A stretch of 64,000 nucleotides of DNA from Proteromonas lacertae. Lineage: Eukaryota. The notes beneath the pieces were generated by a model. The model was given only the letters and a program-made list of their open reading frames with translations, was not told the origin of the DNA and searched no databases. Below, one piece after another: positions 2,963-64,000 of this stretch (position 1 is its first letter; every line of letters starts with the position of its first letter). Both the position numbers and the translations under genes were made by a program. Location of the stretch: NCBI GenBank assembly GCA_002245135.1, contig NGBS01000882.1, positions 124,001 through 188,000 on the forward strand, in the 5' to 3' direction.

Positions 2963-3035
2963 GCGGGATTGGCTCAGTTGGAAGAGCGTAAGTCTCATAA
3001 TCTTAAGGTCGTGAGTTCGAACCTCACATTCCGCA
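2963..3035 (+). tRNA. tRNA-Met (CAT), elongator type
   Basis: Acceptor stem GCGGGAT/ATTCCGC, D arm GCTC-AGTTGGAA-GAGC, anticodon loop CTCATAA, T arm GTGAG-TTCGAAC-CTCAC, T-rich terminator downstream. G1-C72 and the TTCG loop indicate elongator. Confidence 0.97.
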
Positions 3036-22857: not shown

Positions 22858-22937
22858 TACTTCTCTATTTAGTCAGAAAAAAGAAATGTGTATTTATTCA
22901 AGCTTCGAGCTTTGCTTCATTGTTTTTTGAATAAATA

Positions 22938-24478: not shown

Positions 24479-24571
24479 GAAATAGATTTTTTATTTATTA
24501 TTATATTGTTAGAATTTGTGTTTATTATTTGGTTAATACCAATCTTATAAAATAGTTGAGTTATAAATGTT

Positions 24572-25372
24572 TTAAAATTTGCAAGTTATATTAGCATTGA
24601 TACTGTCAAAATACACATTATCTTTATCTGGATTATGCCAAATTGCTTTATAACTTGTTGGCAGTCTTATTCCATTGATATCTTTATAATCAGATATAAC
24701 AGCAGACCAAGGGATGTATTCAGTTGCTCCATTTGGTTGAGTCTCTCCTCTATCTTTAGTATAAAACGATTCCATTTCTCCAATATCATTGAATGTGAAT
24801 GTTCCTTCAGCTGATGTGCCATACATTGAAATTTTTGCTTTTGCATGAAGATTATCAACACTTTCCCACTTTATATACGGTTGTATTGCCATTGAAGGTA
24901 TTGCTAAACACTCAGCTAAGGCAGTTACTAAACATGATTTGTCCATACTTGGACCTGTTTGATTGAAGAGGGTGAATGTGTGACATAATACACCTTTCAT
25001 ACTCCCTTTACCGTTCACATAAGAATCAAGACCATCAAATGCAAAACAGAACATGTTTGCATTAATCACCGCTAATCTGGCAGGCTCTTTTACAAAATTG
25101 TGTTGCACATAATGAATTTTCATGGGTTCTTTATTTTTATCCATCTTAAACTTTGTATCCGTGTGATCAATAATGATTGAAGACATTTTTGGAGTTCCAA
25201 TGAGTTTACAGCATTTGAAATACCTTTTCACAGGATCAGGAAGTGATGCGATATCATTTTCACTAAAGTTACCCTCTTTTAACCTCAATTCCCTTGTTAG
25301 TATGTCAGTGATGTTCTTAAACTCCTTATTTACCGATTTATAGCAGCAACAGCATGAGCAGCAACAACCCAT
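24572..25372 (-). CDS. Intron-less bacterial-type protein (DUF6544/DUF6920-like) with N-terminal MGCCCSCCCC lipidation motif
   Basis: LPDPVKRYF, QHNFVKEPARLA, DSYVNGKGSMKG, YIKWESVDNLHAKA, GTFTFNDIGEMESF, PWSA...DYK.INGIRLPT..KAIWH; family label from recall. Confidence 0.7.
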   Translation of the reverse strand: MGCCCSCCCCYKSVNKEFKNITDILTRELRLKEGNFSENDIASLPDPVKRYFKCCKLIGTPKMSSIIIDHTDTKFKMDKNKEPMKIHYVQHNFVKEPARLAVINANMFCFAFDGLDSYVNGKGSMKGVLCHTFTLFNQTGPSMDKSCLVTALAECLAIPSMAIQPYIKWESVDNLHAKAKISMYGTSAEGTFTFNDIGEMESFYTKDRGETQPNGATEYIPWSAVISDYKDINGIRLPTSYKAIWHNPDKDNVYFDSINANITCKF

Positions 25373-25497
25373 TTTTTTGACAATTGTAAACAATGATTAC
25401 AGATTCAAGTCAGTTATTTTTGTTTCAACAGTGTTTCAAAAAAATGTTTATAAATGAAGTGAAAAAAATAAAGTTATAAACTATCTAATGATTATTC

Positions 25498-30338: not shown

Positions 30339-33300
30339 TTACTTTGGTAATAAAGCTTCTTGATTTGCTTCATTCTTTTCTGTATTATTTCTCTTTCTCT
30401 TACATATCTTAATAGCAGCAAAAGCAATAATCAATACAACAGCAAGTGTAATAGTTAAAATCAATACTAATATTACAGGTGATTGAGTTGTTGCTGGTTC
30501 TACTGTTGGTTCATCAGATCCATCATCTTCAGTGGTTGTTGGTCCTTGTGTTGTTGGTGGAATAGGTTGTTCAGTAGTTGGTGGTACAGTTGTTGGAATT
30601 GATGTTGTTGGTGCGACTGTAGTTGGTGTTACAGTAGTCGGTTGTTGAGTAGTTGGTTGTTGGTTTTTCAGTTGTTGGTGTTACAGTAGTTGGTTGTTGC
30701 AGTAGTTGGTTTTTCAGTTGTTGGTTGTTGAGTTGTTGGTTTTGGTGGAATTGTTGGAATTGATGTTGTTGGTGAATATTTTTGTTTTTTAATGTATAAT
30801 TTGACATTATTTTCATCTTTAAGAGTATCCACATTTGTCTTTAAGTATCCATTGGAGTTAAAACCTTTACAATTCACATCTAAACTACACAATATCTTCA
30901 ATTGTTCCACATCTTTAGTAACAGTTCCTTTACTGAGTAAATCGTTCTTATCTGCATCTTTATTCTCTAAAACTTCATATTCATATTCATCACTATGATA
31001 ATTAACATATTTATTTATAATATTGTCTATTTCTGCAAGTGTATCACCACTTGGTTGATTTGGGAAGGATTTATCACTTTCCCAAAATGCTTTTTCTACA
31101 TTTTCCCATACATTATTACCCCATTCTCCTTCATCAAAATCTTTGCCTTGTTCTACAGCTTGTACTAAACCATCAAATAATGATTTCCATCTTAACAATA
31201 CATAATCAGATATTAATCCATTCCAATGTTTTGAAGCATAATCCATTATTTCACCTCTTGGTCCCCAACTACTCACTTGATTCTTTGCATTTATAACCAA
31301 TTGTCTTATTCTATCTTCATCTCCTTTACCCCATTTCTTAGCATCTTCTGTCCACACTCCTAATAGATAGTTCTCATTTGTTCCTAACATTTTATCTAAA
31401 TCATTCAACATTTGGATAATGAAATCTCTTTGAGGTTTTAAATTGTCATTATCTTTTCGATTATATGATGCAAATGGTAATTTTATTAAATCATATAAAT
31501 AATTACCTATTACTTGTCTAGCTACATCAATATAATCATATAAAAAGTGAGGTGATAATGGTTTTTCCATTGAATTAGCAACTTCATTCATTTCTCTTAA
31601 TACATAAACAGTATCAGTTACATTAGTCCAAGTATAATCAAATTCTCTATTCATACTAGGTCTTTCACTTATTATATTGAATGTATTATCATATACTGGA
31701 TAGGAGGAGTTATAACTACTGTGATATAAGTGTAACCAAGCATCTATTAGCTTTCTTTGCATTTTTATCTTTCTTGTTGATACCAGCTCTTCTTAAAGCA
31801 TAGTTACTGATCCATTCTGTTATATTTACTGGAGTATCTCTCCAAGGAAATTCACTTGAGAATTCATAACTATAAAATATAAATCATAAAAAGAAATATA
31901 AAGAAAAGAGAAAAAAGATTAAAATTAGAATGATATATATATATACATGATATAATTATTCTCAATAGCTTCCATAGTTAATCCAAATCCAATTGTACTA
32001 TATTTCTTATTATTAATAGTTTCATAATAAGTGTTTTGCATTCTATCAATATTACCATATAATGCTCTTCTTCCTCCAAAGTTGTGTAATATATTATAAA
32101 CCATATCTTTACCGAAATAACCATCTAATCTTGGATATTGAGGACGATCATCACTTGATAAATCTAATATTAACATATGATCATTTGGCACTGCATCTAA
32201 ATAAGCTTTTACTCTTTCGGTTGTCCAGAAATATTCTGAATTTAAGAACAACCACCCTTGCATTAACCAAATAGCTTCTGGATCTACATCTACCATTGAT
32301 TGATAGATAGCATGGCTGACATTACTTAGATAATCTAAATCAGAGACGGGAGGATTCATTTCATTAAATTCATCACAATTGAACAAGTGATCATTTCCAT
32401 ATTCTTTAATTTCTTCTTGTAAAAATACTCTACCAATATCATTGAATAATGTTTCATTTGGATTAATCATTAGTACGGAGGTATGCTTATCTTCAAACCC
32501 CATCCAAGCTGTACTTTTCAACGTACTTACTTGTGGATAATGTTGTTTTAATCCATCTGGTACAAATCCTGAAAATGCTGGTAATACATTTCTCATACCG
32601 TAGTTTCTCACTTTTTCTACTATTTTCACTTCTAAATCATGTTGATCATTAATCCATTCATCATCTAAAGGTCCGCCCCATAATTTTAAATTACCCATTC
32701 TTCCCCATGCTAAGAAGGCTGGCCCGGCATAGAATTGCATTGTATCTTCACGAGTCAAGTTGAATTGTTTGAATGTTTTTTCCCAAATGTATTCTTGACC
32801 TGTGAATGATAAGATGATGTTATATCCTAACATTGCTGCCCAATCAATTTCACGACTCCATCGCTCAAAGTCCCAAAATGCCATGGAATAACTGACTGTA
32901 CAGACATTTAAGTAATATCTGTATTTCATATGACTTTCGTGCCTTTCAGTTTGATCAATAATTGGTAGTGGGTTTGGTAAGACGATATGTTTCCAACTAT
33001 CACCAACTCCCCAACTTATTTCTGCATCACAATAGTACTTTAAGTACCAATACAATCCACTAGCTAATGATGCACCAGTATTACCTACTATTTTAATTAC
33101 AACTCTATCACTTCCAGATGAGCTTAAATCAAAGTAATCGTTACTATTGCTGTTTTCTTTTATTTCATATTCAAACAAATCTGATGCTTCTTTACCTACC
33201 AAAGAAATTGTTAGATTTTTTACCTAATTCAGAAAATAGAATAAACAAGAGATACTGTATCAATTTGAACAGCAATATCAGCAGCCAAGCTTGATCCAAA

Positions 33301-33351
33301 ACAGAGTAAGCACAAAGTAGTGCAAACTAAGAACATGCCAATTCTTTTCAT
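30339..33351 (-). CDS. NAGLU: Alpha-N-acetylglucosaminidase (GH89) with small Cys domain, Pro/Thr stalk and C-terminal TM anchor
   Basis: YRYYLNVCTVSYSMAFWDFERWSREIDWAAM, GPAFLAWGRMGN, DEFNEMNPP, WLMQGWLF, LHNFGG, MEAIENN, DYASKHWNGLI; PTT repeats; TM VILVLILTITLAVVLIIAFAAI. Confidence 0.95.
30490..30775 (-). repeat. Pro/Thr-rich mucin-like coding repeat (PTT, PTTEK units) with indels
   Basis: Iterated gttggtg/gtagttggtt on the + strand; translates PTTQQPTTEKPTT. Confidence 0.85.
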
Positions 33352-33502
33352 TTCAATTGAGTCTCAAGCCTATTCAAGTCTGTTGTGTGAAATATGGAAC
33401 ACAAATGTTATTATTACTATATTCTTTGATAAAGTGATAATTATAAATATAATAAACCTCAAAATAAACATCCAAATAAAGGTAAATTGTCAAAAGAGTA
33501 AA

Positions 33503-48028: not shown

Positions 48029-48300
48029 TAAAGAGATAAGATTATTAAATAGTTAAAATTACTAGAACAGTTTATGTAATTTATATGTTTAATGTTAATA
48101 TTGTTGAATAATTTCTATATAATGTTTTGAACAGGGCTGTATAAAAATTATCAAGCTAAATGTATTAACATCTATTTTATTCCTGATGTTATCAACTCTC
48201 CATCCAGACATCTAGACACAATTAAATAATTAGTTATAATTGTACAAATTGTTTACAATTTGATAAATATCTATCCCGATAAGGAAGTGTCTAGAGATGG

Positions 48301-48917
48301 TGTTGTACTCCGTTGAGCTAATTGTGCCGTTGAGTGTTAAGAAGACTTTTTTCAATTCTAATATCATAAACGTAACCTCTGGCCCTTCAATATTACTAAT
48401 CAACGCTTTGTTTTCCAAAATAGTTACGTTGGCCTAATATCGTATATTCGTGTTTAGGTTCCTGTTCTGGAAACACTTTTTATTTTTATATTATTTTAAA
48501 AGCTTATAATAATAGTAGACATCGAGATAAAGGTTTTAAATAGAAAAGGAATACCTACTAATTGCATTTACCTGTTTAAAATTTATTTTTAAAAAACCGG
48601 CTTGAATGAGGCTTGAATAGATTTTTTATTCTTTCGTTTTTAAGTGTCTTAACATCTAAATATGTGTGATTTAATTGCTTAAACTAATGTATTTTTAACT
48701 CTAGTAGTGATTGAAGCAAAAAAATAAAAACTAAAATTATAATTGTTTTCAATATGTTGGGATAAAGTTCAAAATAATATATATCGCAGATGCAGCTTAT
48801 ATGACAAAGTAAGATTATATTTGCATATAACTCGCCATCAAACCACACACTATCATTTTAGAATTGAAAAAAGTCTTCTTAACGCTCAACGGCGCATTTA
48901 GCTCAACGGCGCATAAC
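48301..48917. mobile_element. Non-autonomous TIR element A (~620 bp, ~60-bp TIRs); right tip interrupted by element B
   Basis: Left tgttgtactccgttgagc...aagaagacttttttcaattcta is the imperfect reverse complement of tagaattgaaaaaagtcttcttaacgctcaacggc...cataac at 48859-48917; no TSD found. Confidence 0.75.
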
Positions 48918-49539
48918 TGTTGTTCCCCGTATGGCGGAAATCCCCGTATGGCGGAACTCTATATTGCAGAATGATTCAATCAAAACTAATATGATATTCA
49001 TGATGTTCGGAGTTAGTTATTAACAAATATATAGTTAGTTTGTCATATGACCTACATCTGTGATATACTTATTTATGAACTTCATTATTATCAATATTAA
49101 ACTAATTTTTGTATATTTTCTATTATAATGTATCAGTCACTACTACAGTCTAAAATACATTATCTGATATAAATAGAATTCACTATTTTTAATGTTAAGG
49201 AGGTTAAAAAAGAAAAAAGAAAAAATAAGTTCAAGCCTCGCTCAAGCCTGCTCTTTAATTTCCTTTTTTACTACCTTAACATTAAAATTATTGTATTCTA
49301 TTCATATCAGATAATGTATTTTAGACTGTAGTAGTGACTGATACATTAAAATAGAAAATATACAAAAATTAGTTTAATATTGATAATAATGAAGTTCATA
49401 AATAAGTATATCACAGATGTAGGTCATATGACAAACTAACTATATATTTGTTAATAACTAACTCCGAACATGATGAATATCATAATAGTTTTGATTGAAT
49501 CATTCTGCAAAATAGATTTCCGCCATACGGGGAACAACA
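48918..49539. mobile_element. Foldback MITE B (622 bp, ~275-bp TIRs, TGT...ACA ends, 6-bp TSD CATAAC)
   Basis: Starts tgttgttccccgtatggcggaa and ends ttccgccatacggggaacaaca; arms nearly identical; CATAAC at 48912-48917 and 49540-49545. Confidence 0.93.
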
Positions 49540-49704
49540 CATAACAACATATAATAAACAAACACCATTTCAATATATGATATTAATTTCATTAATTATT
49601 ATATTATAATTATCAATCTTCTTCATCCACATCTACTACGTCAAGCTTGTTATGTTTTAAAAGCATAATTAGCTGCTTTTTTTCGTATTCTTTTTTTTCT
49701 CTTT

Positions 49705-50117
49705 TGTTGTTCCCAGTATGGCGGAACTCTATATTGCAGAATTATTTAATCAAAACTAATATGATATTCATGATGTTCGGAGTTAGTTATTAACAAACAT
49801 ATAGTTAGTTTGTCATATGACCTACATCTATTATATACTTATTTATGAACTTCAATATCATCAATATTAAACTAATTTTCTTATATTTTCTATTTTAATG
49901 TATCAGTCACTACTACAGTCTAAAATACATTATCTAATATGAATAGAATACATTATTTTTAGTACCAGCTTTTTTATTTCTTTTTTACAGAAACTGTTAC
50001 TAAATTTATTGTAATATATTCATATTAGATAATAATGTATTTTAGACTGTAGTAGTGACTGATATATTAAAATAGAAAATATAAGAAAATTAGTTTAATA
50101 TAGATAATAATGAAGTT
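49705..50117. mobile_element. Second copy of the MITE B family, right arm truncated
   Basis: Starts tgttgttcccagtatggcggaactctatattgc (direct copy of the B left arm); inverted arm ~50010-50117 stops abruptly where a new tgttgt begins at 50118. Confidence 0.85.
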
Positions 50118-50460
50118 TGTTGTGCGTTTGTCTACCAGACACTTTCAAAACAAACTATATACATATTCTTACTTGTCTTGATGAAAAATTGTTACTTTTA
50201 TACTTACTTTGTCATATAACATACATCTATGAGTAACTATTAATTGTCATAATATTGAATAAAAACTATCAAAATATATTCTAGAAATTATGTATATTCC
50301 AAATTTTATGTTTTTATTGACATATAATGTCTAAATGAGAAGTGTCAGTTACACAGGAATTAAGAATTGTACCCCTTCTGACGTCATTTTTAATTTAAAA
50401 TTTCATTTTCTTCAACTTTTTTGTTTGTATGTTTTTTTGATTCAGTCAAAGAGAAAAAAT

Positions 50461-52739
50461 GAATTGCAGCAGAAACTTTGAAGAATGTTATAAAATTCTA
50501 TCAAGATAAGAAGATATTTCAAAAAAGAAAAATCAAGCTTGTCAAACTTGACAGTTTTTTTTTAATTTCAGAAAATCAAAATGTAAGCACTATATATATA
50601 TATATATATTATTATTATTATTATTATTATCAAAATATTTACTTTATATTATTTATAAACTGTATAATACTATCATGTACAGCGAAAGGTATAGAAGCAT
50701 CACTATTCTATGAAGATAAAGTAGATGTAATTGATTTTGGTGATAAATTTATTAACAGATAAGCTGAAAGCGCATTTTAATAGAAAATCGAGGTTTAAGA
50801 AGTCAAAGATTAACTAGGCCCAATTATAGAGTAGAAAAAATAATATATCAAATATACAGCAGAATAGTGTTGATTTAGACTTTAGGAGAAAAAATGTATT
50901 AATTAGAAGAAAAAAAGCTCAAGCTCAAGATTTAGATATTGGTTGAAGTATCACTTACCAATGAAGGATCAATTAAACCAAATGTAATAATTACTCCACC
51001 AAGGTGAATTAGATATAGAAGAAAGTGTAACAATCAAAGTATCTTATACAAGTTCAACTCTTGGTGAATTTAGTGATCATTTTGAATTTGCATTAAAAGG
51101 AGCAACTAATAATGTGGTATTAACAATAAAAGGACATGTAGTTGGTCCAACATTCTTCTTTAATAAGAATAAACTAGATTTTGGTATTGTAAGTTATGCA
51201 TTTTTAAACTCATCTGATTTGATATTAAGAAATACTTCCTCTGTTACATTTATATTCAATTTGCTAGTTTCTCAAGATGGTAATTACTTAAACAAAGAAT
51301 TCGAAATAATTCAAGCAGTAGCAACAGTATTACCAGAAGGAGAAGAGAAAATCAAAATCAATTTCATATCTCAAACAATAAAAGTATATGATTATTGTTT
51401 AGCAATTGATATTGAAAGTGTAGGTGAAGCTTTATTAACAATTCCAATAAGTGCTGAATGTCGAGTAGCTGAAGTAGAATTATTAGAAGAATCATTGAAA
51501 TATGGAGATTGTTATTTAAGATATACTTATTATCGAACTTTAACATTAAAGAATAAATCCAATTTAAGTGCTCAATTTGAAAACAGAACAAGATGAAAGA
51601 AGTAAATCGATTGGTAGTTATTTCCCTGATCCAGCTAAAGGTGTAATTGGACCAATGGCAACTCAAATGATTAAAGTTTAATTAAATCCTGAGAAATTAG
51701 GTGATATGAGAATTCCATTATATATTCAAATAATTGGCAGTCAATATCCTCCATTGGTATTAGTATTAGAAGCAAATGGACTTGGACCAGTGATAAAATC
51801 TACTTTAAATCATATAAAATTTGGTGATATAACTTGTTTAGATACTCATACAAAAGAATTTACAATAACTAATCCAACTTCAATTCCAGCTTTTTATAAA
51901 TTAGATTTTGAACGAGGATTTTATTTTAATACTGATATAGTTGATGGTATATTACAAAGTAAAGAATCTCAAAAGATAGTAGTTAGTTGTATGTTGGAAG
52001 ATGTATCAGCTTATAAAGATACAATATACATAGCAGCAACTGAAGGAGATAGTGCAATTCTTCCAGTTACAGCTAAATGTATAATAACAACAATATTTTG
52101 AGAAGATCCAGTAGATGTAATTGATTTTGGTGATCAATTCACAAACAGAACAATCGAAAGAGTATTTTTATTAGAAAATCGAGGTTTAAGAAGTCAAAGA
52201 TTAACTAGGATAAATCAAACTGCAGCAGAAAAAGAAAAATCTTTTAAAGCCAATAAATTAAAGATGGAAAGTGAAATGAATTCAAACCTTATGAAGTTAC
52301 ATTTACAATAACTCCCAATGTAATCGAATTAAAACCCAATACTGCTTGAAGTTTTGTAACATCTGGAAGTTGTGAAAAACCCTGTGAAATGATGAAAATG
52401 TTTTCTTGTTTGAGGAAATTTGATGGAGAAATAAGAAATAATGAAGCAAAAGAAACCGAAGTAAAAGTGATCTTTATGAATCCATTAATTCAATGTTCTG
52501 AAGAGAAAATCGAAGTTCAAAGTAAGACAGTTGTATTTAAGAATATATCAACATTGAGTTTAGATGTGATAATAAGTATAGCAGCTCCATTATTATTGAG
52601 TATGAATGAATTCCATTTAGAACCAAATGAATCAATGAATGTGACAGTGGAATTTGATCCAAATTATAAAGATGATAAAATCTCATGTAAAATAAATGGA
52701 ATATTGAATTTAAGATATGAAGATCATAATAATGAATAT
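50461..52739 (+). pseudogene. HYDIN: Decayed internal fragment of HYDIN (axonemal central-pair protein)
   Basis: LTIKGHVVGPTFFFNKNKLDFGIVSYAF...RNTSSV...QDG...KEFEI and further ASH/Ig-like repeats (IKFGDI.CL, IDFGD, VEFDP.YKDD); in-frame TAA/TGA stops (~51679, ~52100, ~52347) plus frameshifts; no start or end of the gene. Confidence 0.75.
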
Positions 52740-52841
52740 TAGGGTGAAATAGAACACTGTTCCATTTCACCCTATGTGTTTTTGATCCAAAAAAATAGCC
52801 GTTTCAATGTGTTCTATTTCACCCTATGGTTTTTTCACCCT
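52740..52841. repeat. Junction palindrome with iterated TTTCACCCT motif
   Basis: tagggtgaaat-a-gaaca-c-tgttc-c-atttcacccta (52740-52774), another gtgttctatttcacccta at ~52809-52826 and tttcaccct at ~52833-52841. Confidence 0.85.
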
Positions 52842-53202
52842 TAGAAACATAATTAGACAATAATAAATACATCAATCGATTTCTTTATTTATGCTGGGCT
52901 CATATATGCCCTTAGTTTGACTTTCTGATCATAATCGAAATCTAATTTTCTTAAAAAATTCAAAAACAATAATAGATAGGATGGCCACCATACTGTGTGA
53001 TATGACAACATGTGGTGACCATCCTATGTAATAAAAAACAAAACAAAAAAATGGAGTTCAAGTCAAATCTCGAAACGCATCTATTTTTCAATTATTGAAA
53101 TTTCTTATAAGACTTGCTATAATGCTAATTAATTATGTAAATTATGAAAACAACACTCCCACAGAAACACAATCTATCATTTGAACTAATTAGGACCAGA
53201 GA

Positions 53203-54004
53203 TTAATAATCATTTTGGTACTCTGGCTCCTCCTCCTCATCATCTACTATATATTGGGAGAAGTTATCATCATCATCATCTTCCTCTGTAGTACTATCTT
53301 CTTGTTTTTGGTTTTTGGTTGAAATGTTTTTTTGATTTATTTTCTTTCTTTTGAATCTTGGAGTTTTAGATGTACTGCACTTTCTTTTTGTGGATACCAC
53401 CTTTAACAACTTGTTGTTGTCATCATCATCATCATTATAATCATCATCATCCAGATTATCAAACAACGATGCTATAGAGACTTTACTACTTACCATACTT
53501 TCAGCAGTACTTCTGTAAACTATATCTCCTTTCGAATTCTTATTTTCTTCTTTTTCGCATTTTGCTAAATCGTTGTCACCGAAATGTATGATATACATAC
53601 AAGTCAGTTCCACCATGTCCTCCATTGCATGGTCAAGCATACGATCATACTATTGATTCAAAATTGAAATATATATTAAATGGATATACGATGCTTTTGT
53701 CCAGATCCTCTTTATACATGATATTACATAGCAGGACAGACATCAACACTCTAGACATCTTTAACCTTTCATGTCGATCATCAATCTTTTCAATTTCTGT
53801 GAATCTTTTGTACCATGTAGTGAAACGCCTTATACTGAAGTTACCATTCCAGCTATAGACATATAATAATATATTATACCTATAACGTTGCAAATCTTTC
53901 TCATGTTCTACAATCGTCTTAAAATTCTCACATAAAATTTTATATATGCTCGGATTTGGATCATTAATGAAGCTGTTTTTGTATAGTATCTTCCAGTTGC
54001 TCAT
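53203..54004 (-). CDS. Viral hypothetical protein with acidic tail; probably one gene split by an indel near 53645
   Basis: Adjacent same-strand ORFs 53645-54004 and 53203-53640, no introns. Confidence 0.55.
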
Positions 54005-54166
54005 AATAAGTGAATGAAAGGAAAATAACGTTGAACAATGAACAAATGTTATATGTATATATATATTTTTAAATGTTGTTATAAAGACATATAACTCTAT
54101 TAATTTAGATAATAATCATAATGAAATGAATTTCATTATTACTTTTGTTTTTTGTTTTTGGACCAT

Positions 54167-55453
54167 ATGTTTAGCACTAATAGTTACGATCCACATTTAT
54201 ACAGCTCATATAGCAACCAAAACCCATATCCTGTCAAACCGTTACCTACAAATGGTAACTTATCACTTGCAACATATATTAACCATGGAGCACCGAATAT
54301 TACACATCCAACAAGAGAGGCTTCGTATGAAGACCAAATGTCAAACCAAATTGCCCAATATCGATCACGCTTAGATGAGCTATATAAAAAATATTATTAC
54401 CTCAATGAAAATGAATTTGTCAAAATGACACAACATTTGTCTAGTATGAATGACATAGCTCCACCACCAGATGTAGTACGTGAATACTTAAGGAGACAAC
54501 CTGGAAAACAAATTGTTGATTTCAAATATAAAAAAAATAATCCATTTGCAACTATCAAAAAGCCAGGGTACTTCCAAATGGATATAGTGTTTTTCTTACC
54601 TGATATGGAACATTTGTATTTTATCGAAATGAATTCAAGAAAAGTATGGGCAATATTTATGCCTAATAAATATGGTGATATTACATTGGATGCATTTCAG
54701 AAGTGGTATTATGAAACAGATGCTTATGGAAACAAAACACATAAAAATGTGGTAAGTATCCTATCAGATGCTGATGCTAGTTTTTCAAATATCAAGAAGT
54801 TATGTGATGCTGAAGGAATATCATATTTTCAAAAAGATAGTTCAGAGCATAAAATAGAGTCATTATTGGATAGATCAGTGAGTGTGTTAAAAAGATTGTT
54901 GTACAAACACTTGGTGGATCTGGGATATGATGCACCTACATATATGGCAGATATTGATCACAATGATAAGCATATTATACCAGATATGAATTATAAATTA
55001 AAACTCGATAGTATAATACAGGAAGTGATAGATGACTATAACAACAAGCCATTACCAGGAATTAAAGGATATACCCCAAATGAGGTATTCCATAGTCCAG
55101 AATTACAAAAACAAATATTACAAAAATCAATTAACTACAACTTAAAGAATTATGAAAAATTGGATCATACTGGTCAAAATTTCGAAGTAGGTGATTTGGT
55201 GAGATTCAAAGAGAGAAGACGTAAAATGGATAAGAACATATACTGGTCAGACAATGTATATAAGATAATCAAGAAAAATCGATATTCATACAATTTAGGT
55301 GATATCAATGGGAATGACATTCAAGGTTTTTCATTAATTCGATTCAAACACTATGAGTTGCAGTTAGTGAGAAAAGATGATGCACCAACCACATGGTTTA
55401 GAAAAATACTGGAGAGACCCAAGAGAAAGAAGGGAGACAAATCAATATTGTAA
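54167..55453 (+). CDS. Polinton/Maverick-type retroviral-like (rve) integrase
   Basis: GYFQMDIVF (D), ILSDADASF (D), LLDRSVSVLKRLL (third acid), YNNKP...GYTPNEV, and the C-terminal FEVGDLVR...WSDNVYKI...YNL.DING..I...FKHYELQLV module. Confidence 0.9.
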   Translation: MFSTNSYDPHLYSSYSNQNPYPVKPLPTNGNLSLATYINHGAPNITHPTREASYEDQMSNQIAQYRSRLDELYKKYYYLNENEFVKMTQHLSSMNDIAPPPDVVREYLRRQPGKQIVDFKYKKNNPFATIKKPGYFQMDIVFFLPDMEHLYFIEMNSRKVWAIFMPNKYGDITLDAFQKWYYETDAYGNKTHKNVVSILSDADASFSNIKKLCDAEGISYFQKDSSEHKIESLLDRSVSVLKRLLYKHLVDLGYDAPTYMADIDHNDKHIIPDMNYKLKLDSIIQEVIDDYNNKPLPGIKGYTPNEVFHSPELQKQILQKSINYNLKNYEKLDHTGQNFEVGDLVRFKERRRKMDKNIYWSDNVYKIIKKNRYSYNLGDINGNDIQGFSLIRFKHYELQLVRKDDAPTTWFRKILERPKRKKGDKSIL

Positions 55454-55504
55454 CGAATAAATTTTTATTATGCTATATATTGTATATGTTGTTTTATTAT
55501 TATT

Positions 55505-55694
55505 GGGCATTGGATAGACTAGCTACGATGAGGGCTGCGTTTCTAATTTATAATTATTTATTTATTTATTAAATTAATTTCACAAGGAATTTATGGAAGT
55601 TTAATAATTTCTACTTGGATGTGTTGTTTAATATTGCGCCATTGAAATTCGGCTTGAATCATCCTGGCACGGTATATCTAAATGCCCTTTTTTT
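55505..55694 (+). ncRNA. Putative Pol III small RNA 1 (~185 nt, VA-RNA-like), viral
   Basis: GGGCATT/AATGCCC terminal stem extended by GCTA/TGGC, GATGA/TCATC and GGCTG/CGGCT pairings; ends in T7; no internal TTTT. Confidence 0.6.
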
Positions 55695-55701
55695 ATTTAA
55701 T

Positions 55702-55795
55702 TGGGATCTGATAGACTGTGCAAGGAAAAAAGAGTCATGCAGCTGGCATTAGTGGTTCGATTCCTAGCACAGACTATTAGTAATCCCATTTTTTT
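55702..55795 (+). ncRNA. Putative Pol III small RNA 2 (~90 nt, VA/vault-like hairpin), viral
   Basis: Stems TGGGAT/ATCCCA, CTGATAG/CTATTAG, CTGTGC/GCACAG, AGGAA/TTCCT; consensus B box GGTTCGATTCC at 55754-55764; ends in T7. Confidence 0.75.
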
Positions 55796-55854
55796 AATTT
55801 CTTTTTTTAAATATTTTATTATACATATACATATAGTATATTCTATTTTTATAT

Positions 55855-56265
55855 ATGCTTACACTACCACCACAGATTGAATATAAATTACCAGAACTTG
55901 AATCCAAGGTAACAAAGAAATATCATTTAAGTGGTCCAGACATATACTTGGATTTGTATAGCCTACAATTCCTTATATTTTTTTATCATCGAAAACCTAT
56001 ATATCAATGGTATTTTGAGTTAACACACAAAATGATTAACATGATCATGAGTCAACGTTTGATATTAGTGTTTGTAGGTCCTTGTGACTTAGGAAATAGA
56101 GATTATCCGAAAGTTACATATACACCAACAATGAAAAAAGTAATCATTAGAATGCCACAAAGATGTTTTAATGGTAAGATGCCAATATTCTTCAAATGTA
56201 CTCATATGGATACAGAGATGATAAATATATTGAAACTCATACAATATTTCACCACACATAAATAA
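55855..56265 (+). CDS. Viral hypothetical protein (136 aa)
   Basis: Intact ATG-TAA ORF flanked by AT-rich spacers. Confidence 0.6.
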   Translation: MLTLPPQIEYKLPELESKVTKKYHLSGPDIYLDLYSLQFLIFFYHRKPIYQWYFELTHKMINMIMSQRLILVFVGPCDLGNRDYPKVTYTPTMKKVIIRMPQRCFNGKMPIFFKCTHMDTEMINILKLIQYFTTHK

Positions 56266-56296
56266 AAAAAATAATTAAGTAATAATTATATATATA

Positions 56297-56800
56297 TTAT
56301 ATTAATCCAAATTGTTTTTTCATTAACCTAATTTTTGCTTCACCCACTATTGTATTATAGTCAGTAGCCTTTTTGAAACTACACTGATCTCTTAAAATAT
56401 TTTTCAAAAAATTAATAGCAAAAAAACCACAGTTGGCAGTATTTGAATTTTGGATTCTGTACTCCATTGATTTTAAGTTCATACTTTTCATTATGATACT
56501 TCTTTAATTTTTTCAAATTTTTTTTAAATTCTTCCAAGTGTTGAGGATCTTCACCAAATGAATCATAGTACAGGAATTGCTTTCTTGATATTGTCAACTA
56601 CTAAAGCAACCCAATGACCTATAGAATCAGGGCTAGCTTGTGTGGTGAGTGTATTGATTATGATTCCCCATTGATTCTTCTTTTTGGGTATAGGAAGTAC
56701 AAGCTCGTCCCAGCAGAACACTCCCATGAACTTTCCATGGAAATTATTGAACTCATTTTTCACAATTAACTCTATATCAAAATTCGATAAGGCATCTGAA
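56297..56800 (-). CDS. Adenain-like (clan CE) cysteine maturation protease domain; two indels
   Basis: LSNFDIE...FMGVFCWDEL...IIINT...GHWVAL (His), YYDSFG (Asp), IQNSNTANCGFFAINFL (Gln, Cys) across three frames. Confidence 0.88.
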
Positions 56801-59383
56801 GTGATACTGTTATACAAAACTTTCCTACGTGAAATTAATTTCTTTACTTTTTTATTATTTCCATTACCTATTCCAAAGTAACTCATAGCTTCACTGAGTT
56901 GTTTTGCTTGATCTAAATTACTCACTGCTCTACCAAAATTAGTGAGTGAACTTGGAATTGTTTGCTGTGAACGTTTCACGTAGTTATCCATTTTGATTGC
57001 ATTCTTGTGTTGATATGGTGTTGGTTTTAACCAGTTTAATAAACCACCTGCATCTAGCAAACCAAAACAAGCAGTCAATGCACTGAATACTGTTCCTATA
57101 CCTGCAACAGTTTGTAATGTACCTGTTGGATCAGCTGCAACAGCAGTTTTTGCCATTGATGGCATAGCTTTTGATAATTCACTGATACCTTTAACTGCTG
57201 CTGCAGCAGTTGTTGCATCACCTCCATTTGCAGCTGCAGCTACAGTTGCTGCTGTTTTTAATGTATCACCTACATTTTTTGCATCTATATTTCCAATATT
57301 AGAAAATTTGTAGAAGAATGGAACTAATTGAAATAAGTATCGAACATATGGATGAGTATTGAACATAAATGAAACACCAAAGTTATACAACAAGTCTACA
57401 GGTAACCATGATTTTTGAATTGCTTCAGGTAACATTGACTTAACTTTTTCTGAATTACCATAATACAAATCAGTGATAGCAGGTAATCTACCACCTGACA
57501 GCATACGAATTATTTCATAGTAGTCGAAAATGAAGTACCACATTACATACAAGAACCCTGATGTTGGTAGTTTAGATTTTTTCCATAACCAATAAGCCTA
57601 AACATGTCATTACTATTGCACGAACATATTTCATTGCATGATCTACTTCAAACATTTGAGGAGTAACTCCACCTACCAAATATGACTTCATTGTATAGTA
57701 TATTTGTGGAAATATCCTAAATACATTCTCTACACACAGGAACAAATTACCAGCAAAACCCATAAAATCAGATTCACGTAATGAATCAAGTGCTTTTTGA
57801 AATTGTGAATTTTCAAATTGTGCCCATGAACTACAAGCAGTTTTCACTAAACCAATAGCTATTTCATATTTTTGTTTATTATCTGCATTCACCCACTCTT
57901 GAGGAAGTGAGTGACCTAACTTCTCTCTGTTATAATCAAAGTTAATGAAATCTCTACTATTCTGTGATGCTATTTCATTCAGTTCTCTATATTTATCTTC
58001 ATTAATTAATGTACACTGTCCTTCACCCATATCTATAGCACTATTCATCAGTTCTTGATTTTTTGGATCTAATGCCCATCTATAAAATTTTGATCTTTCT
58101 AATATCTCTGGATCATCCATATATCTTTGTGCCTTTTGATTATTCAATGCAATATATTCTTTTACTTTTTCAGCTCGATTCGGATCAAAATTATATGGAT
58201 CTGAATATTGATTGATCTTACTTACTCCATCAACTAATTCATTTTGCAAATACTCCTGCTGTAGTAATAGTTTGTTATAATATTCTATTGCATCTTTATC
58301 ATTACCTGTTAATTTATCCCAAGTTGAGGTCAACCAATCTTGTCTATAATTTTTATAGGCTGCTAATTGAGGATTCTTTTCTATAATCTCTTGTAATGAT
58401 TTATAATTTTGTAATTTAGGAAATTTTTGTAACAAAGGATCTGTAACTCTATTCATTCCATTATCATATGCCTGAACATCTGCTTCTGTAACATATTCAG
58501 GCCAATTCAAAAGATAGCTTCTTGGATTAGATGTATCTAATGTTGCTAATGGGAATGTTCCTCTTAAATGTCCTTTTTTATGTTCACGATCTAGCATATC
58601 ATAAAAATTAATATGATAATTGTTAGGCAACAAAGAAGCATAATTATTAGTTAAAGCATATTGAACTTCTTTTCGAGCTTGTCTATTCAAACCTGGACTA
58701 AATAATTTATCATAATTCCAATTATAATCATATCCTACAGTTTCTTTTGGTATATATGGTTGAATATATTCTGGTATTTGACTTGGCTGTAATTGTGATG
58801 TTCCATTATAAGCAGCACTAGCAGCATCATACATTTGTTGTCTTGGATTAGTAATAATGACATGCTCATTAGGACCAACACTTTGACCCACTCTTAATGG
58901 TATAATACCACTATTACCACCTAATTTCTTAGTAGCCAAGAGATGCCTCCGTGGGATACTCTCTAATTTTAGTTTATTTCTTCTGTGATGTTTCTTATGT
59001 TTGAAATGAACATGTTTTCTTCTACCTGAACCTGTCTTTGGATATCCATCTAAAGACATACCAAATAAACCATAATTTACTTTTGGCCATAAATGATATT
59101 CACTACCCATACCATTAATTAAATTACACACATCTGATCGTGCTTCTGGAACACTACGACCACATTGATATTTGAAATAATGTAAGTAATCTGCCAATTG
59201 ATCTATTGTTCCACCATAGCTGGAATACTTTGATATAATATCTAATGGCAATCCTACATTTTTACATACATTTTCTAAATCTTGTTTTGTATTATTCATA
59301 ACCATTTGCTTAACTGATTCATAATCATATTGATTAATCAAAAATGGTTGTAATTTTTCCATAATAGCATCTACATTATATCT

Positions 59384-59425
<42 letters not shown>

Positions 59426-60802
59426 GTTGTTGTATTGGTTGTGTGTTATTTTGCAATGTTGGCTGGGCTGCTGCCGCCGTGGCGGCAGCAGCACCTGCCA
59501 TCATTCCGGCGTAACTTGCAGCATTTGAACTTTGATTATTATAACCTGCCCCAGTTGCAGGTATTGAAGTTGTATTATTAGAACTGGCCCAGTTGTAGTA
59601 CTATTAGTTGTATTATTATAACTGGGAGCAGTTGTAACATTCGATGCTTGAATATTTGAAGTAGCCGGCGCACTCGTCGAATTTGTTGTTGTAGGAGTAG
59701 CACCAAATATACCTCTGAACCAATTGTATATATTACTTAGTGATGTAGTAAAGAAACCCATTATACTATCTAACTTAGAATGAATCCATTGTGACATATC
59801 CATTGGAGGAACTTGTTTCCAACGATTATATACCAAACTGACAAAATTAGGAGTTAACATTGACACAAAAGATGCTGCATTAACCCATGCTGGGGATAAA
59901 CCAAATATCCATTGCATAACACCACTATATCCTATTCCTGCATTTACTAAATACTTTAATATTGCACCAACTGTACTATCAGGAAATAGTATATCAAACA
60001 CTTGTGAAATAGAACCTAATGTCATAGTACATAAGCAGAACTTCACACCAAATTTCAACCAATCGTATGTTGTATTACCTGAGAAATATTTATCAATTTT
60101 TGAAATTAATGACTCTTTTTCTCTTTCTTCCATTGTTGCTATCTTTCTCTGATATTCTTCATTCCTTGCTTTCACTATTTCATTTTCTTGTTGTAATTCA
60201 TACTCGTGATCTTTTTGTGTTGTACCAGCATTATTATTCCATCTTGGATTGGATTGATATGAATTTACATTGTACTGTGATCCCCATTGTTGTAATGGCT
60301 GTCCTTCAATTTGAGATAAAAATGGATTTTGCCATTGATATGTTAAATTCTCTGGTTGAGCATAATAATCTGAGTATGGCTTGTTATACTTACCTATGTT
60401 CCTATAATATCGTCCAAACTGATCTGTGATGCCTGACATATATAATTTGTATTTCATCTCATCAGTCATGAAATTGTTTTTTGTTGCGTTTATATTTGGA
60501 TTAACAGGCTTTGATAATTCCTCTATATCATCCTCATCTCCTATAGTATCATAAAATTTATTGAAACTAGATTTAGGATCATAGATGTCTAATCCATATG
60601 TACCATTGCCTTTGTCAACAATGGCTGTTGGGTTAGCCATGTGACTGAGATCTAGTTTTATTTTTTTGTTATCTTTCACCTTGTTGTAGATGATCTTTTT
60701 CAATTTTCTCTTAAGTGCATTATGATACACAGAGGGATTCTCAAAATCAATTGCTTCTTCTTTTGGTGATGATTGTTGCTTATGCTTTCGTTTAACACCC
60801 AT
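56297..60802 (-). CDS. Probable ~1,500-aa viral polyprotein ending in the protease
   Basis: ORFs of 433, 640 and 329 aa and the protease pieces join with single-base corrections (~59588, ~59424, ~57575, ~56580, ~56459); no AT-rich intergenic spacers between them. Confidence 0.55.
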
Positions 60803-60880
60803 AAAATATATAAAAACAATATAAAAAATAGAGAAACAATACTATTAGAAATATAGCCGTTATTGATATTATAGATGATA

Positions 60881-61892
60881 TTAACTTTTCTTTCGTTCTA
60901 CAGATTGCCATCCATCATCATCAAAATCAGAATCAAATTCACCATTTTCTTCTTGTTCTTGTTCTTGTTCTTCTTCAAAATCAGATTTAAATTCATCATC
61001 ATCTTCTTCTTCTTTTGGTTTATTAAATTCAATATCTTCATTTTCATCATCATCATCATCTGGCTTTCCATTTGCAATCCATTCTTCATATTGTTTAATA
61101 TTTTGAGCTTCTTCCCACAACTCTTTTATTTTAGTTTTCTGAGCTTCTGTAAAGTCATATTCATCAAATATTTGGTCTATTTGCTTCTTTAGTAAAATTT
61201 TTAACATCGTCAATAGTAATTTCATCATCATTATCATTATCATCATCACCTTTATCATCTTTAACATCAGTTGACGGCTGTACTTTAATATCTGTTTCTG
61301 CTTTAGGAGTAATCAATTTATTCAACTTCTACTATTATATATAAATTAACATGAATTTTATACCATATTGTTGCATTTGTGACATCTTGATTTGGTTAAT
61401 TGGATTACTCATATACTCACCCATCTGCATCCTAGTCTTTGCACTTGCTTGAGCCATTTCATTGTAATTAGGTCTATTCATATTCACATACATGTTAGGA
61501 CCAAACAAATGCTGATCATCAATCTCTCTTAAACTATTAGCAAGTGGTATAGCCATTGCATTACCTTCATGTAATGATGTAGATAACATAGAATCGATTG
61601 CATTCTGTCTCTCTAAAAATTTTTGCTCATCATTCAATTTACGAATATCACCTTCATTAGGAGGAGTGTCTTTAGAATTTATCTTAGTAATCTCATCTTT
61701 TATTTCATTTAAACGACTGTTTCTCATATCCACTAAATCTTTCGCATTTTCTCTATAAAAATTATTATATAAACTCTGATAATATTTGTCATGTCCTTTA
61801 TATCCTTCACCTCTCCGTATCTTCTTCCTTTTGCCTTTGCCTCTCATCCGAGCAAACACAGCAAGCAGTATTTTCTTATTTAGTTTTTTCAT
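60881..61892 (-). CDS. Viral protein with basic N-terminus and very acidic C-terminus; probably one gene split by indels
   Basis: RMRGKGKRKKIRRGEG at the start of ORF 61335-61892; D/E-rich ORF 60881-61267 follows closely on the same strand. Confidence 0.5.
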
Positions 61893-61961
61893 AATAACTT
61901 AATAGAAAATAAATAAACAATTTAATTATAATAATAATGTGTAATATAAGTATTATTAATA

Positions 61962-62579
61962 TTATTGAACATAAACAGGCTCGATAGGCTCGCCTTGTAT
62001 TTCTCTACCTGCAATATCATTACCTAATGGTTTATCTTCTTCTTCTGGTTCTGGTTCTTTTACTTTCTCTATTTTCTCTTTCTTTGGATTTGAACTCTTT
62101 TCTAATTTCTTCATATATTTGCCTAATTGATCTCTGGTTTCTTTCAAAGCTATTTGTAATTCAGCTTTTGTCATACGACTAGGAGGAGGTAATGATGAGT
62201 CCCTATCCTTTTTACTATTTTTTCTACCACCACCACGTTTGGACTTAGGCTCGTCTAAAGCATTTGATTTTTGTTTCTTACTAGATCTTCTTTTGGATCT
62301 CTCATGTGATCTTGATCTTGATCTGGATTTATGGGAGTGTTTTTTACCTTTTATTGATTTTTTATGAGATGATGATCCATCATTCTGTAATATATTGTAT
62401 ATATCCTTTGGAGAGAATTGTGATAGTAATTCATTGATCATAGCATCACTTGGTTCAGCTTCTGTGATTTTTGGTTTGGACATCTTGGAATCATTTTCAT
62501 TTATTGACTCTACTTCACTATCAGACTCATCAGTAGAACTATCATCACTCACATATTCAGTTGATTCAGTATCACTCAT
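61962..62579 (-). CDS. Viral hypothetical protein, acidic N-terminus with RS/K-rich centre
   Basis: Intact 205-aa ORF, SRSRSRSHERSKRRSSKK. Confidence 0.65.
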   Translation of the reverse strand: MSDTESTEYVSDDSSTDESDSEVESINENDSKMSKPKITEAEPSDAMINELLSQFSPKDIYNILQNDGSSSHKKSIKGKKHSHKSRSRSRSHERSKRRSSKKQKSNALDEPKSKRGGGRKNSKKDRDSSLPPPSRMTKAELQIALKETRDQLGKYMKKLEKSSNPKKEKIEKVKEPEPEEEDKPLGNDIAGREIQGEPIEPVYVQ

Positions 62580-62669
62580 TATTTATTTCTATGTTATGAA
62601 AAATAAAATTAACAAAAGAAACAATGAAAATAATAATATAAGTATTATTAGCATTATTAAAAGTCAAGC

Positions 62670-62962
62670 TTACATTCGAGCCACCTTTGATTTTAAATAT
62701 GCATTCAATAATGCTTGTTGATTACTACCACCTCCATTGAATGGTAATCTACCTCTTCCTGACCTACGTCTTCTACGACCAAATCCCATTGTTGATAATC
62801 CATCTGCGATATCATTCTTTCCAAATTCCCTAGCTATTTTGGATGTTATTTTATGATCCTTTCCCAGTTAAATGCTTTGGAACCCCAATTTTTTAACTTA
62901 CCCCAGAAAGAACCACCCCTTCTTCCATAAACGCATCTACGTCTTCTACCACCTTTTGGCAT
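62670..62962 (-). CDS. Small Arg-rich core-like viral protein; indels, missed by ORF track
   Basis: MPKGGRRRR...GGSFWGKLK...DHKITSKIAREFGKNDIADGLSTMGFGRRRRRSGRGRLPF...KVARM-stop. Confidence 0.65.
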
Positions 62963-63021
62963 TATGTTATTTCGAATGAAAATAAAGAAATACGATTAAA
63001 ATAGAAAAAAATAAAATTAGA

Positions 63022-63525
63022 CTAGAAAACTCTAATCTTATTGTCAATATATCGATTATCGAGACTATTACTACTTTTACGTCTTTTACCAGAACCAGTC
63101 TTTTTCTTTGCTAACAAAAATTTCGGTATAGTACTTGGACCACCTTTCGTCCAATTCTTTACAGCAAATGGATTAGCCATTCCACCATTTTTTAAATAGG
63201 GCATGCTGCCTGGACCACCAGTAATTACATTTTTTAATTCCTTTGGTACTCTATTGACACCTAATTTTTTAATTTTATTCCAAAAAGAACCACCACTTAT
63301 ACCACCATCATAATTCCATTCTGCTTGCCCACCTCTTCTTCTACGTTTTCTACCATATCCTACATTGGATACAACATTACCTAAGGCTGGACCTACACCT
63401 GGGATTAAACTAGCTGCTGTTGATAAAATTTTTGTTTTCTTAAAGAAATTCTTTACTCCATCCCAGAACTTGCCTTTACCTATGATATACTTACGATATT
63501 TCGCTTTTGAACTTCTTTTAACCAT
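63022..63525 (-). CDS. Basic core / membrane-lytic-like viral protein with Gly-x-Gly motifs
   Basis: GKGKFWDGVKNFFKKTKILSTAASLIPGVG...VGYGRKRRRRGG...GGSFWNKIKKLG...GSGKRRK. Confidence 0.7.
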   Translation of the reverse strand: MVKRSSKAKYRKYIIGKGKFWDGVKNFFKKTKILSTAASLIPGVGPALGNVVSNVGYGRKRRRRGGQAEWNYDGGISGGSFWNKIKKLGVNRVPKELKNVITGGPGSMPYLKNGGMANPFAVKNWTKGGPSTIPKFLLAKKKTGSGKRRKSSNSLDNRYIDNKIRVF

Positions 63526-63599
63526 AATTTGAGATAATTATATTTTTGAGTGATAATATAGTCAATAATATCAATATTGTCATTATAGCCGTTTTTAAT

Positions 63600-63959
63600 A
63601 TGTCAGCTGGTCCAATACCTCAAATAACTTTTAATAGTGGTGTTGCATATCAACAAGATGGTCAACACCCTCAATATCTACCACAGCCACAACCGAATCA
63701 ACAATCGCAACAATCGGTACAAAATGATCAACAAGCTCAAGTACTGAAAACACTCGAAACATTACCTCCAGAGGCACAACAGATGTTAAAGAGTATTAAT
63801 CCATGGACATTCAAGGAAGCACAAGCTATATTAAATAAATTGACAGATGAAGTGTTAATGGAGAGAAATCAAACACCAATACAACAACAACAGTCATACC
63901 CAGTACAGAATTTAACTCCTGTGCAATATGCTAGACAAAATATGACATTAATAGGTTAA
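63600..63959 (+). CDS. Gln/Pro-rich viral hypothetical protein
   Basis: ATG at 63600 (MSAGPIPQ), divergent from the 63525 gene. Confidence 0.55.
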   Translation: MSAGPIPQITFNSGVAYQQDGQHPQYLPQPQPNQQSQQSVQNDQQAQVLKTLETLPPEAQQMLKSINPWTFKEAQAILNKLTDEVLMERNQTPIQQQQSYPVQNLTPVQYARQNMTLIG

Positions 63960-64000
63960 TAATTAACATAATATCAATATTTGAAATATATTCGTTTCAT

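Follow-up and report, generated by a model that had tools for sequence, protein, structure and literature searches.

The 64-kb stretch of contig NGBS01000882.1 of Proteromonas lacertae analysed here (the window) consists of eukaryotic host DNA using the standard code and, from 52741 to 64000, of a compact gene block that runs past the end of the window. The block differs from bases 1-52740 in GC content (31.3% versus 27.0%) and in its number of (TA)5+ runs (2 versus 15), and at least nine genes were counted in it. We found that it is probably best explained, overall, as ~11 kb at the left end of a Polinton-like virus (PLV) integrated in a low-GC, short-intron protist and carrying two predicted RNA polymerase III (Pol III) hairpin genes. 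The features on which this explanation is built are the following (positions in the window):

50660-52739, plus strand: host flank, a decayed HYDIN/CFAP65-like gene fragment (Pfam HYDIN_VesB_CFA65-like_Ig, E 2.4e-15 and 3.7e-7)
52740-52826: left end of the element, a palindrome and a third copy of its arm (DNA fold z -4.58; AG start at 52741)
52970-53033: second, subterminal palindrome (z -6.20 / -4.65; strand-symmetric energy)
54167-55453, plus strand: retroviral-type (rve) integrase, 428 aa, intact (structure match, Pfam rve in relatives, alignment)
55505-55694, plus strand: hairpin unit U1, 183 nt (55505-55687) followed by T7; candidate Pol III RNA gene with a degenerate B-box
55703-55795, plus strand: hairpin unit U2, 85 nt (55703-55787) followed by A and T7; candidate Pol III RNA gene with an exact B-box at 55754-55764
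56297-60802, minus strand: putative single gene of ~1,500 codons ending in a Ulp1/adenain protease (pieces of 433, 596, 326 and 64 aa)
56297-57190, minus strand: protease domain (about 56297-56830) with a hydrophobic N-terminal extension (tblastn of P0175)

The left boundary is directly established and lies where the first-pass annotation had placed it. A 17-nt arm occurs three times in 52741-52825 (0.08 expected), two copies (52740-52756 and 52758-52774) forming a near-perfect terminal palindrome of 35 nt (52740-52774) and the third following at 52809-52826. The fold energy of the terminal palindrome is nearly equal on both strands (-28.3/-30.5), as is that of the second palindrome, which likely sits inside the terminal repeat, so that both behave as DNA palindromes do. 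Polintons have terminal inverted repeats with a target-site duplication, and their ends start with 5'-AG. Endogenous virophages and PLVs with an rve integrase have been reported to carry terminal palindromes beside the target duplication (10.64898/2026.07.28.741278). On the host side, the HYDIN-like fragment carries in-frame stops made by substitution, and one piece of it is duplicated, which marks it as a decayed copy; the last of its frames stays open up to 52739 and ends at the junction, where the element interrupts it. This remnant of a flagellar gene and the short host introns would suit a gut flagellate of the Opalinata. Just left of this fragment we observed a cluster of foldback repeats resembling miniature inverted-repeat transposable elements (48300-50120), with arms of 275-280 nt and 90-95% identity (48941-49215/49259-49533 and 49283-49562/49682-49961) and some shorter ones. 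The host part of the window holds ordinary genes (encoding a kinase, HSP70, MFS, NAGLU and PP4R3 proteins).

The integrase itself gave no match in sequence searches of Pfam, PHROG or PDB. Six relatives were found (42-56% identity to the window protein), a profile of which retrieved 431 proteins at E<=0.001 (the best 150 of the 431 listed), and Pfam rve was matched by 16 of 23 scanned relatives at E<=0.01. The predicted structure (mean predicted local distance difference test score, pLDDT, 52.8) resembles retroviral integrases and intasomes in PDB (best E 5.6e-8), and the integrases of MELD virus and mavirus appear at ranks 31 and 38 of its 50 BFVD matches. When the window protein was aligned with 138 relatives of at least 250 aa (n=139, shorter relatives dropped), D139 was D in 130 and D201 in 138 of the sequences, while the column of D235 held 86 D, 42 E, 10 N and 1 V. 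The D-D-D triad was considered as a novelty and rejected; it is intact but ordinary for the clade, because D is common among the relatives at the third site. The first-pass annotation had taken the intact integrase to suggest a recent insertion. The 428-aa frame is indeed intact; recency does not follow from it, since an insertion can be dated only from its two terminal repeats or from further copies, and the host fragment next to it is itself already decayed.

When part of the 326-aa piece (residues 240-322) was used as the query, a single match was obtained among 180 candidates, namely P0175, a relative with an unbroken frame that contains Pfam Peptidase_C48 (E 1.3e-11) and Peptidase_C5 (E 2.1e-7). 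Matches of P0175 to PPR were discarded as repeats of weak matches, and no phage match was found for the protease. In a tblastn search of the window P0175 aligned across three successive frames (identity 45%, 49% and 73%), and therefore two breaks in the window cut a gene that is unbroken in a relative. The His, Asp, Gln and Cys motifs are all present, spread over these three frames, and the hydrophobic extension N-terminal to the protease domain is common to the window protein and P0175. The adenain-type family noted earlier for this protease is thus upheld, with the qualification that the gene lies in three frames in the window and is whole only in P0175.

The protease frame appears to continue far upstream. 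The stretches between the 433-, 596- and 326-aa pieces have a GC content of 0.43 and 0.39, versus 0.03-0.19 in eight of eight true spacers, and at ~59430-59594 an alternative frame has a coding score (0.144), unlike the frame with the stop (-0.043, -0.282). Because of these high-GC gaps and frame scores, it is fairly probable that 56297-60802 on the minus strand constitutes one gene of ~1,500 codons that encodes a single long protease precursor; we infer the join upstream of 57543. Three observations weigh against such a precursor. The 433- and 596-aa pieces also form a single frame in which the TGA at 59501 is the only stop, which would make real decay possible; P0175-P0178 were called as proteins of 227-302 aa rather than as long precursors, though their contigs measure just 1.6-2.6 kb; and the 596-aa piece had no relative among proteins of 1,044-2,980 aa, a weak test as the relatives sit on contigs of 1.5-15 kb. 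The same piece had no match in the Atlas. Two strongly folding stretches within the long gene, 59455-59505 and 59551-59650 (z about -4 and -5.8; 15 shuffles), lie over Ala/Gln/Thr-rich low-complexity codons.

We also found two hairpin units, U1 and U2, arranged in tandem and head to tail between the integrase stop and the gene of a 136-aa protein. Their anatomy is clear: both start with GGG, have an 8-nt motif in common at +8/+9, pair their 5' and 3' ends and are followed by seven T. Fold z was -3.75 for U1 and -4.70 for U2, with none of 200 shuffles as stable, and a further calculation for U2 gave -6.17. U1 folds with -48.3 kcal/mol on the plus strand (14 G-U pairs) versus -32.1 on the minus strand, and U2 with -33.3 versus -28.9, and this preference for the plus strand points to an RNA structure rather than a DNA structure. 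The host tRNA-Met(CAT) at 2963-3035, with a T run after it, served as a control for Pol III layout. Among the 144 runs of at least six T in the window, U1 and U2 ranked second and third for end-pairing and the tRNA ninth. The terminal palindrome ranked first; its region (52741-52835) resembles U1 and U2 in having a GGG start, ATAGA near +8 and then T6, yet folds equally well on both strands. The likeness between U1 and U2 was reached by 0 of 2000 shuffles for each end and by 15 of 2000 for the whole length, and the differences in the outer stem keep the pairing (one C-G pair absent from both sides, T-A changed to C-G, G-U to U-A and G-C to G-U). The B-box of U2 is the sole exact match in the 64 kb to the 11-nt consensus (0.01 expected).

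Judging from these sequence features, we lean slightly towards U1 and U2 being Pol III transcripts. Several points weigh on the other side: a looser 9-nt B-box pattern occurs at chance level (21 found versus 20 expected), the B-box of U1 is degenerate without an exact copy, a clear A-box in the right place is lacking in both units (the +8/+9 motif fits the consensus partially), and the shuffles used for the likeness between the units do not keep the hairpin, while the ends had been picked by eye. The possibility that U2 is a D-armless tRNA was rejected, and ARAGORN and Rfam find only the host tRNA-Met in the window. VA (virus-associated) RNA was absent among the 13 and 3 Rfam matches at E<=10. 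The exact U2 21-mer occurred in none of the viral contigs, and a loose pattern of the U2 layout gave 120 loci, 68 of which overlap tRNAs called by ARAGORN and none of which matched the element proteins or U1/U2.

Two other explanations of the units have to be considered. U1 and U2 could be a host short interspersed element (SINE), or a captured host small-RNA gene, inserted in the provirus without a viral role, which we regard as quite unlikely. A B-box and oligo-T are also features of SINEs. Endogenous viruses are reported to attract insertions (10.64898/2026.07.28.741278), but there is no second copy of U1/U2 in the window, no clear flanking duplication and no Rfam family at threshold, and the pair-keeping differences between the units also speak against a SINE. 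Alternatively, the whole element could be an endogenous mavirus-like virophage that depends on a giant virus, in which U1 and U2 would be hairpin and oligo-T terminators of the integrase mRNA. Giant-virus systems use hairpin-directed termination, and both units lie directly 3' of the integrase stop on the same strand; however, no other gene end of the element carries such a unit, and a tandem paralogous pair and an exact B-box are unnecessary for termination. An adenain-like protease is described as always present in virophages (PMC9952930), the mavirus integrase is among the fold matches, and endogenous virophages are reported to have terminal palindromes (10.64898/2026.07.28.741278), whereas the nuclear-type intron candidates described below better fit host-nuclear transcription; altogether we consider the virophage explanation unlikely.

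The block had earlier been described as an intron-less set of genes with an integrase, a protease and basic G-x-G proteins. All of this was recovered except for the absence of introns, which is probably not fully right, as two host-type sense candidates are located exactly at frame breaks. Host introns in the window are short, AT-rich and of the GT-AG type; the 16 that were read by eye measure 29-77 nt, with a median of 39. A rule derived from these 16 (GTAT start, TAG end, 28-75 nt, GC<=0.20) recovers 14 of them and finds, in 9,793 viral coding bases, two sense sites, both at frame breaks, and one antisense site. The first candidate (53689-53650, 40 nt, minus strand) joins two open reading frames (ORFs) in frame with no other change needed. 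The second (61363-61332, or to 61329, minus strand) spans three in-frame stops and precedes an acidic coding piece without ATG; it coincides with one of the single-base shifts discussed below. It speaks against these introns that the rule was fixed only after the candidate sites had been seen. Nevertheless, on the sequence evidence the odds favour at least one of them being real. In the host HSP70-like gene, an AT-rich interruption (22730-22680, minus strand; start ATATCTTT, end TTTAC) resembles a minor-class AT-AC intron, although the frame has no clean closure.

Endogenous viruses of protists are said to be without introns (PMC10120064), and introner insertions are known in dinoflagellate Polinton-like elements (PMC12166617). 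Among the papers listed by our literature search, none dealt with short host-type introns in Polinton-like viruses. Large surveys use intron-free gene calling (PMC10120064), from which genes with short host-type introns and frame errors would be concealed.

Most genes of the element other than the integrase are interrupted in the assembly, with eight single-base shifts in ~3,229 viral codons (near 56455, 56583, 57590, 59428, 59595, 61183, 61363 and 62865) that fall, by eye, at short homopolymer runs. Frameshifts in endogenous viruses of protists have been described as often being assembly artefacts (PMC10120064). Since P0175 bridges two of the breaks and the host MFS gene (22935-24480) has, besides introns, three single-base shifts of this kind in ~1.5 kb (by eye), in line with such artefacts, assembly error is the likelier explanation for most breaks than decay. 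A reassigned TGA codon was rejected as an explanation, as long host ORFs use TGG and terminate at TGA. Two host ORFs of 1,912 and 1,445 codons are without any break, which weighs against assembly error in that the errors are then not uniform. If the breaks were real mutations, the element would be a dead, decaying provirus; its 'introns' would then be spacers or AT-rich decay, and the long gene would fall into separate or ruined genes. The number of shifts, the same-frame TGA at 59501 and the insertion in a pseudogene region beside foldback repeats are in line with this, but the breaks are at homopolymer runs and are shared by host genes, and substitution-made stops, common in the HYDIN-like fragment, are absent from the viral frames apart from that TGA. 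We therefore hold decay to be rather improbable.

The other genes and motifs of the element are:

53203-54004, minus strand: acidic-tailed protein, two ORFs likely joined by the 40-nt intron candidate (no family match)
55855-56265, plus strand: 136-aa protein (model pLDDT 43.9)
60853-60861, also 63585 and 52795, minus strand: promoter-like 9-mer, 59-68 nt ahead of two minus-strand starts
60881-61892, minus strand: protein with a basic N-terminus and an acidic C-terminus (intron candidate 61363-61332/61329)
61942 and 62634, minus strand: 14-mer upstream motif, 63-68 nt ahead of two other starts
61962-62579, minus strand: 205-aa acidic/basic (RS-rich) protein, from sequence composition
62670-62962, minus strand: small arginine-rich protein in two frames with a GG-S-F-W segment, from sequence composition
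63022-63525, minus strand: 167-aa basic G-x-G protein with two segments of a G-rich site and an F-W helix; candidate protease-matured core protein
63600-63959, plus strand: 119-aa glutamine-rich protein (ORF)

At Z>=5 or E<=0.001 nothing matched the low-confidence model of the 136-aa protein. A high isoelectric point (11.1-11.9) characterises both the 167-aa protein and the small arginine-rich protein, which have many G-G/G-x-G sites, and their genes have a 45-nt segment (80%) as well as the GG-S-F-W segment in common. Small core proteins of adintoviruses and MELD viruses have been proposed to be cut by adenain and to be membrane-active (PMC8502044, 10.1101/2024.03.25.586562). For the proteins of the element such a role is weakened by two results: a likeness of the F-W helices and basic proteins to adenovirus protein VI was not supported by PDB or Pfam, and the hydrophobic moments of the F-W helices rank only 26, 191 and 433 of 2,861 windows. 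Atlas matches of the 167-aa protein were all under 0.9. The 9-mer and the 14-mer each precede two of the nine starts examined and have exact copies inside the element only; with one mismatch allowed, the 9-mer occurs at chance level.

That the block is a capsid-less integrase transposon (Ginger2/Tdd- or transpoviron-like) with cargo genes is very improbable. No capsid was seen in the window, and the sequence after the palindrome centre starts with TGT, as Ginger ends do; against it stand the nine or more genes, a maturation-type protease and basic core-like proteins among them, and the upstream motifs that genes of the block share.

A few host genes elsewhere in the window were observed in passing: a gene with an alpha-macroglobulin TED domain (744-2420), an EGF-containing gene of 1,912 codons whose internal repeats lie ~1.1-1.3 kb apart (9000-19027), a gene with DUF6544/DUF6920 (24572-25396, minus strand), a family that we take to be possibly of bacterial origin, and a gene with a NAGLU domain (30668-33400, minus strand).

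The combination of integrase, Ulp1/adenain protease and basic proteins behind a palindromic end supports reading the block as a Polinton-like (Polisuviricotina-type) integrated virus, and it very probably works like an integrating virus of the Polinton type. It was reported that integrase and protease are Polinton genes (PMC11161782) and that the protease belongs to the core of virophages (PMC9952930) and of Gossevirus-group PLVs (10.64898/2026.06.19.733378). The earlier identification as a Polinton, PLV or virophage type is in agreement with the integrase, the protease and the palindromic end; a strict assignment to Polinton/Maverick would need pPolB and a Polinton-type capsid, neither of which was seen in the window. 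On the left-end genes, a virophage or a Gossevirus-like PLV fits equally well. It weighs against a viral nature that no capsid, ATPase or replicase, genes which the first-pass annotation had placed beyond 64000, was recognised in 52741-64000 by family scans of this part of the window; virophages are defined by hexon, ATPase and protease with dedicated hidden Markov models (PMC9952930). At least 285 endogenous viral capsid genes have been catalogued in Proteromonas (PMC10120064). No related locus was found in viral or metagenome contigs.

The activity of the element, its capsids, transcription, splicing and cleavage and the function of its RNAs we infer as follows. The integrase would have joined the palindromic end to host DNA within the already decaying HYDIN-like fragment. 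Nuclear Pol II of the host may then transcribe the element genes from short shared motifs lying ~60-70 nt upstream, with two short introns being excised by the host spliceosome. A precursor of ~1,500 residues would likely have the protease at its C-terminal end; the protease would cleave both this precursor and the small basic proteins, in each case at G-G/G-x-G sites, leading to maturation of the virion core and exposing the F-W helices, which may act on membranes. Pol III would produce U1 and U2 from internal promoters as long, G-U-rich stems with an oligo-U end, and these would most likely act against RNA silencing by the host, either as decoys or as precursors of small RNAs; that they do counter silencing we regard as less likely than not.

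The insertion alone is ordinary, as Polinton-like integrations are common in protist genomes; new are the hairpin pair, the protease fusion and the intron candidates, none of which had been noted in the first-pass annotation. Among the papers listed, our literature search found no report of such RNA genes in Polintons (subscription journals were mostly outside its coverage), and whether Polintons make VA-RNA-like non-coding RNAs, for which the two tandem units of 85 and 183 nt with their defined ends would be candidates, is not treated in the literature searched. For the Polinton-like group, fusion of the protease to a long precursor would add a new layout of morphogenesis. A protist Polinton-like lineage that jointly has a VA-RNA-like Pol III pair against silencing, a self-processed protease precursor of ~1,500 residues and acquired host-type introns is conceivable, though on balance doubtful; if true, it would give the adenovirus-style VA RNA strategy an older origin, among viruses of single-celled eukaryotes, and reveal a nuclear, helper-independent expression programme.

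Like Polintons/Mavericks and the Gossevirus group/VC35, the element has an rve integrase and a vUlp1/adenain protease in a compact integrated block, together with basic G-x-G proteins (PMC11161782, 10.64898/2026.06.19.733378); it shares a retroviral-type integrase and an Ulp1/adenain protease with Polintoviricetes, and the protease with Gossevirus-group/VC35 PLVs. Unlike Polintons and the Gossevirus group, it has a protease with a conserved N-terminal extension, probably the end of a ~1,500-codon gene, two intron candidates and the D-D-D triad that is common among its relatives. The close relatives found were only six integrases and one protease cluster. The endogenous virophages/PLVs of Halocafeteria seosinensis likewise have an rve integrase near one end and a palindrome at the very terminus, for which a role as replication-priming hairpin was proposed (10.64898/2026.07.28.741278). 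Their figured palindrome is 52 nt, versus 35 nt here, and the part of that account available to us does not mention hairpin RNA genes or introns (10.64898/2026.07.28.741278). In being small, putative adenain substrates that may act on membranes, the two basic proteins are reminiscent of adintovirus and MELD-virus core proteins; no sequence match was obtained for them. In Ginger2/Tdd transposons the integrase is the only gene between the ends, unlike the element, of which the part seen here already holds many. Adenovirus VA RNAI and VA RNAII are tandem, G-started and end-paired, have an internal B-box and an oligo-T end and lie between protein genes. U1 and U2 are likewise tandem, G-started, end-paired units with an oligo-T end in an adenain-encoding virus; they differ in having no Rfam match, rod-like folds of 183 and 85 nt, no clear A-box and a protist host. 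The type-2 Pol III genes of vault RNA and nc886 are 88-150 nt with internal A and B boxes (PMC10491885, PMC9027504), and U2 resembles these in size and B-box, while the absence of an Rfam match, the viral location and the greater length of U1 set the pair apart. In line with the type-2 layout, U1 and U2 each combine a B-box (degenerate and exact, respectively) with a terminal stem and oligo-T.

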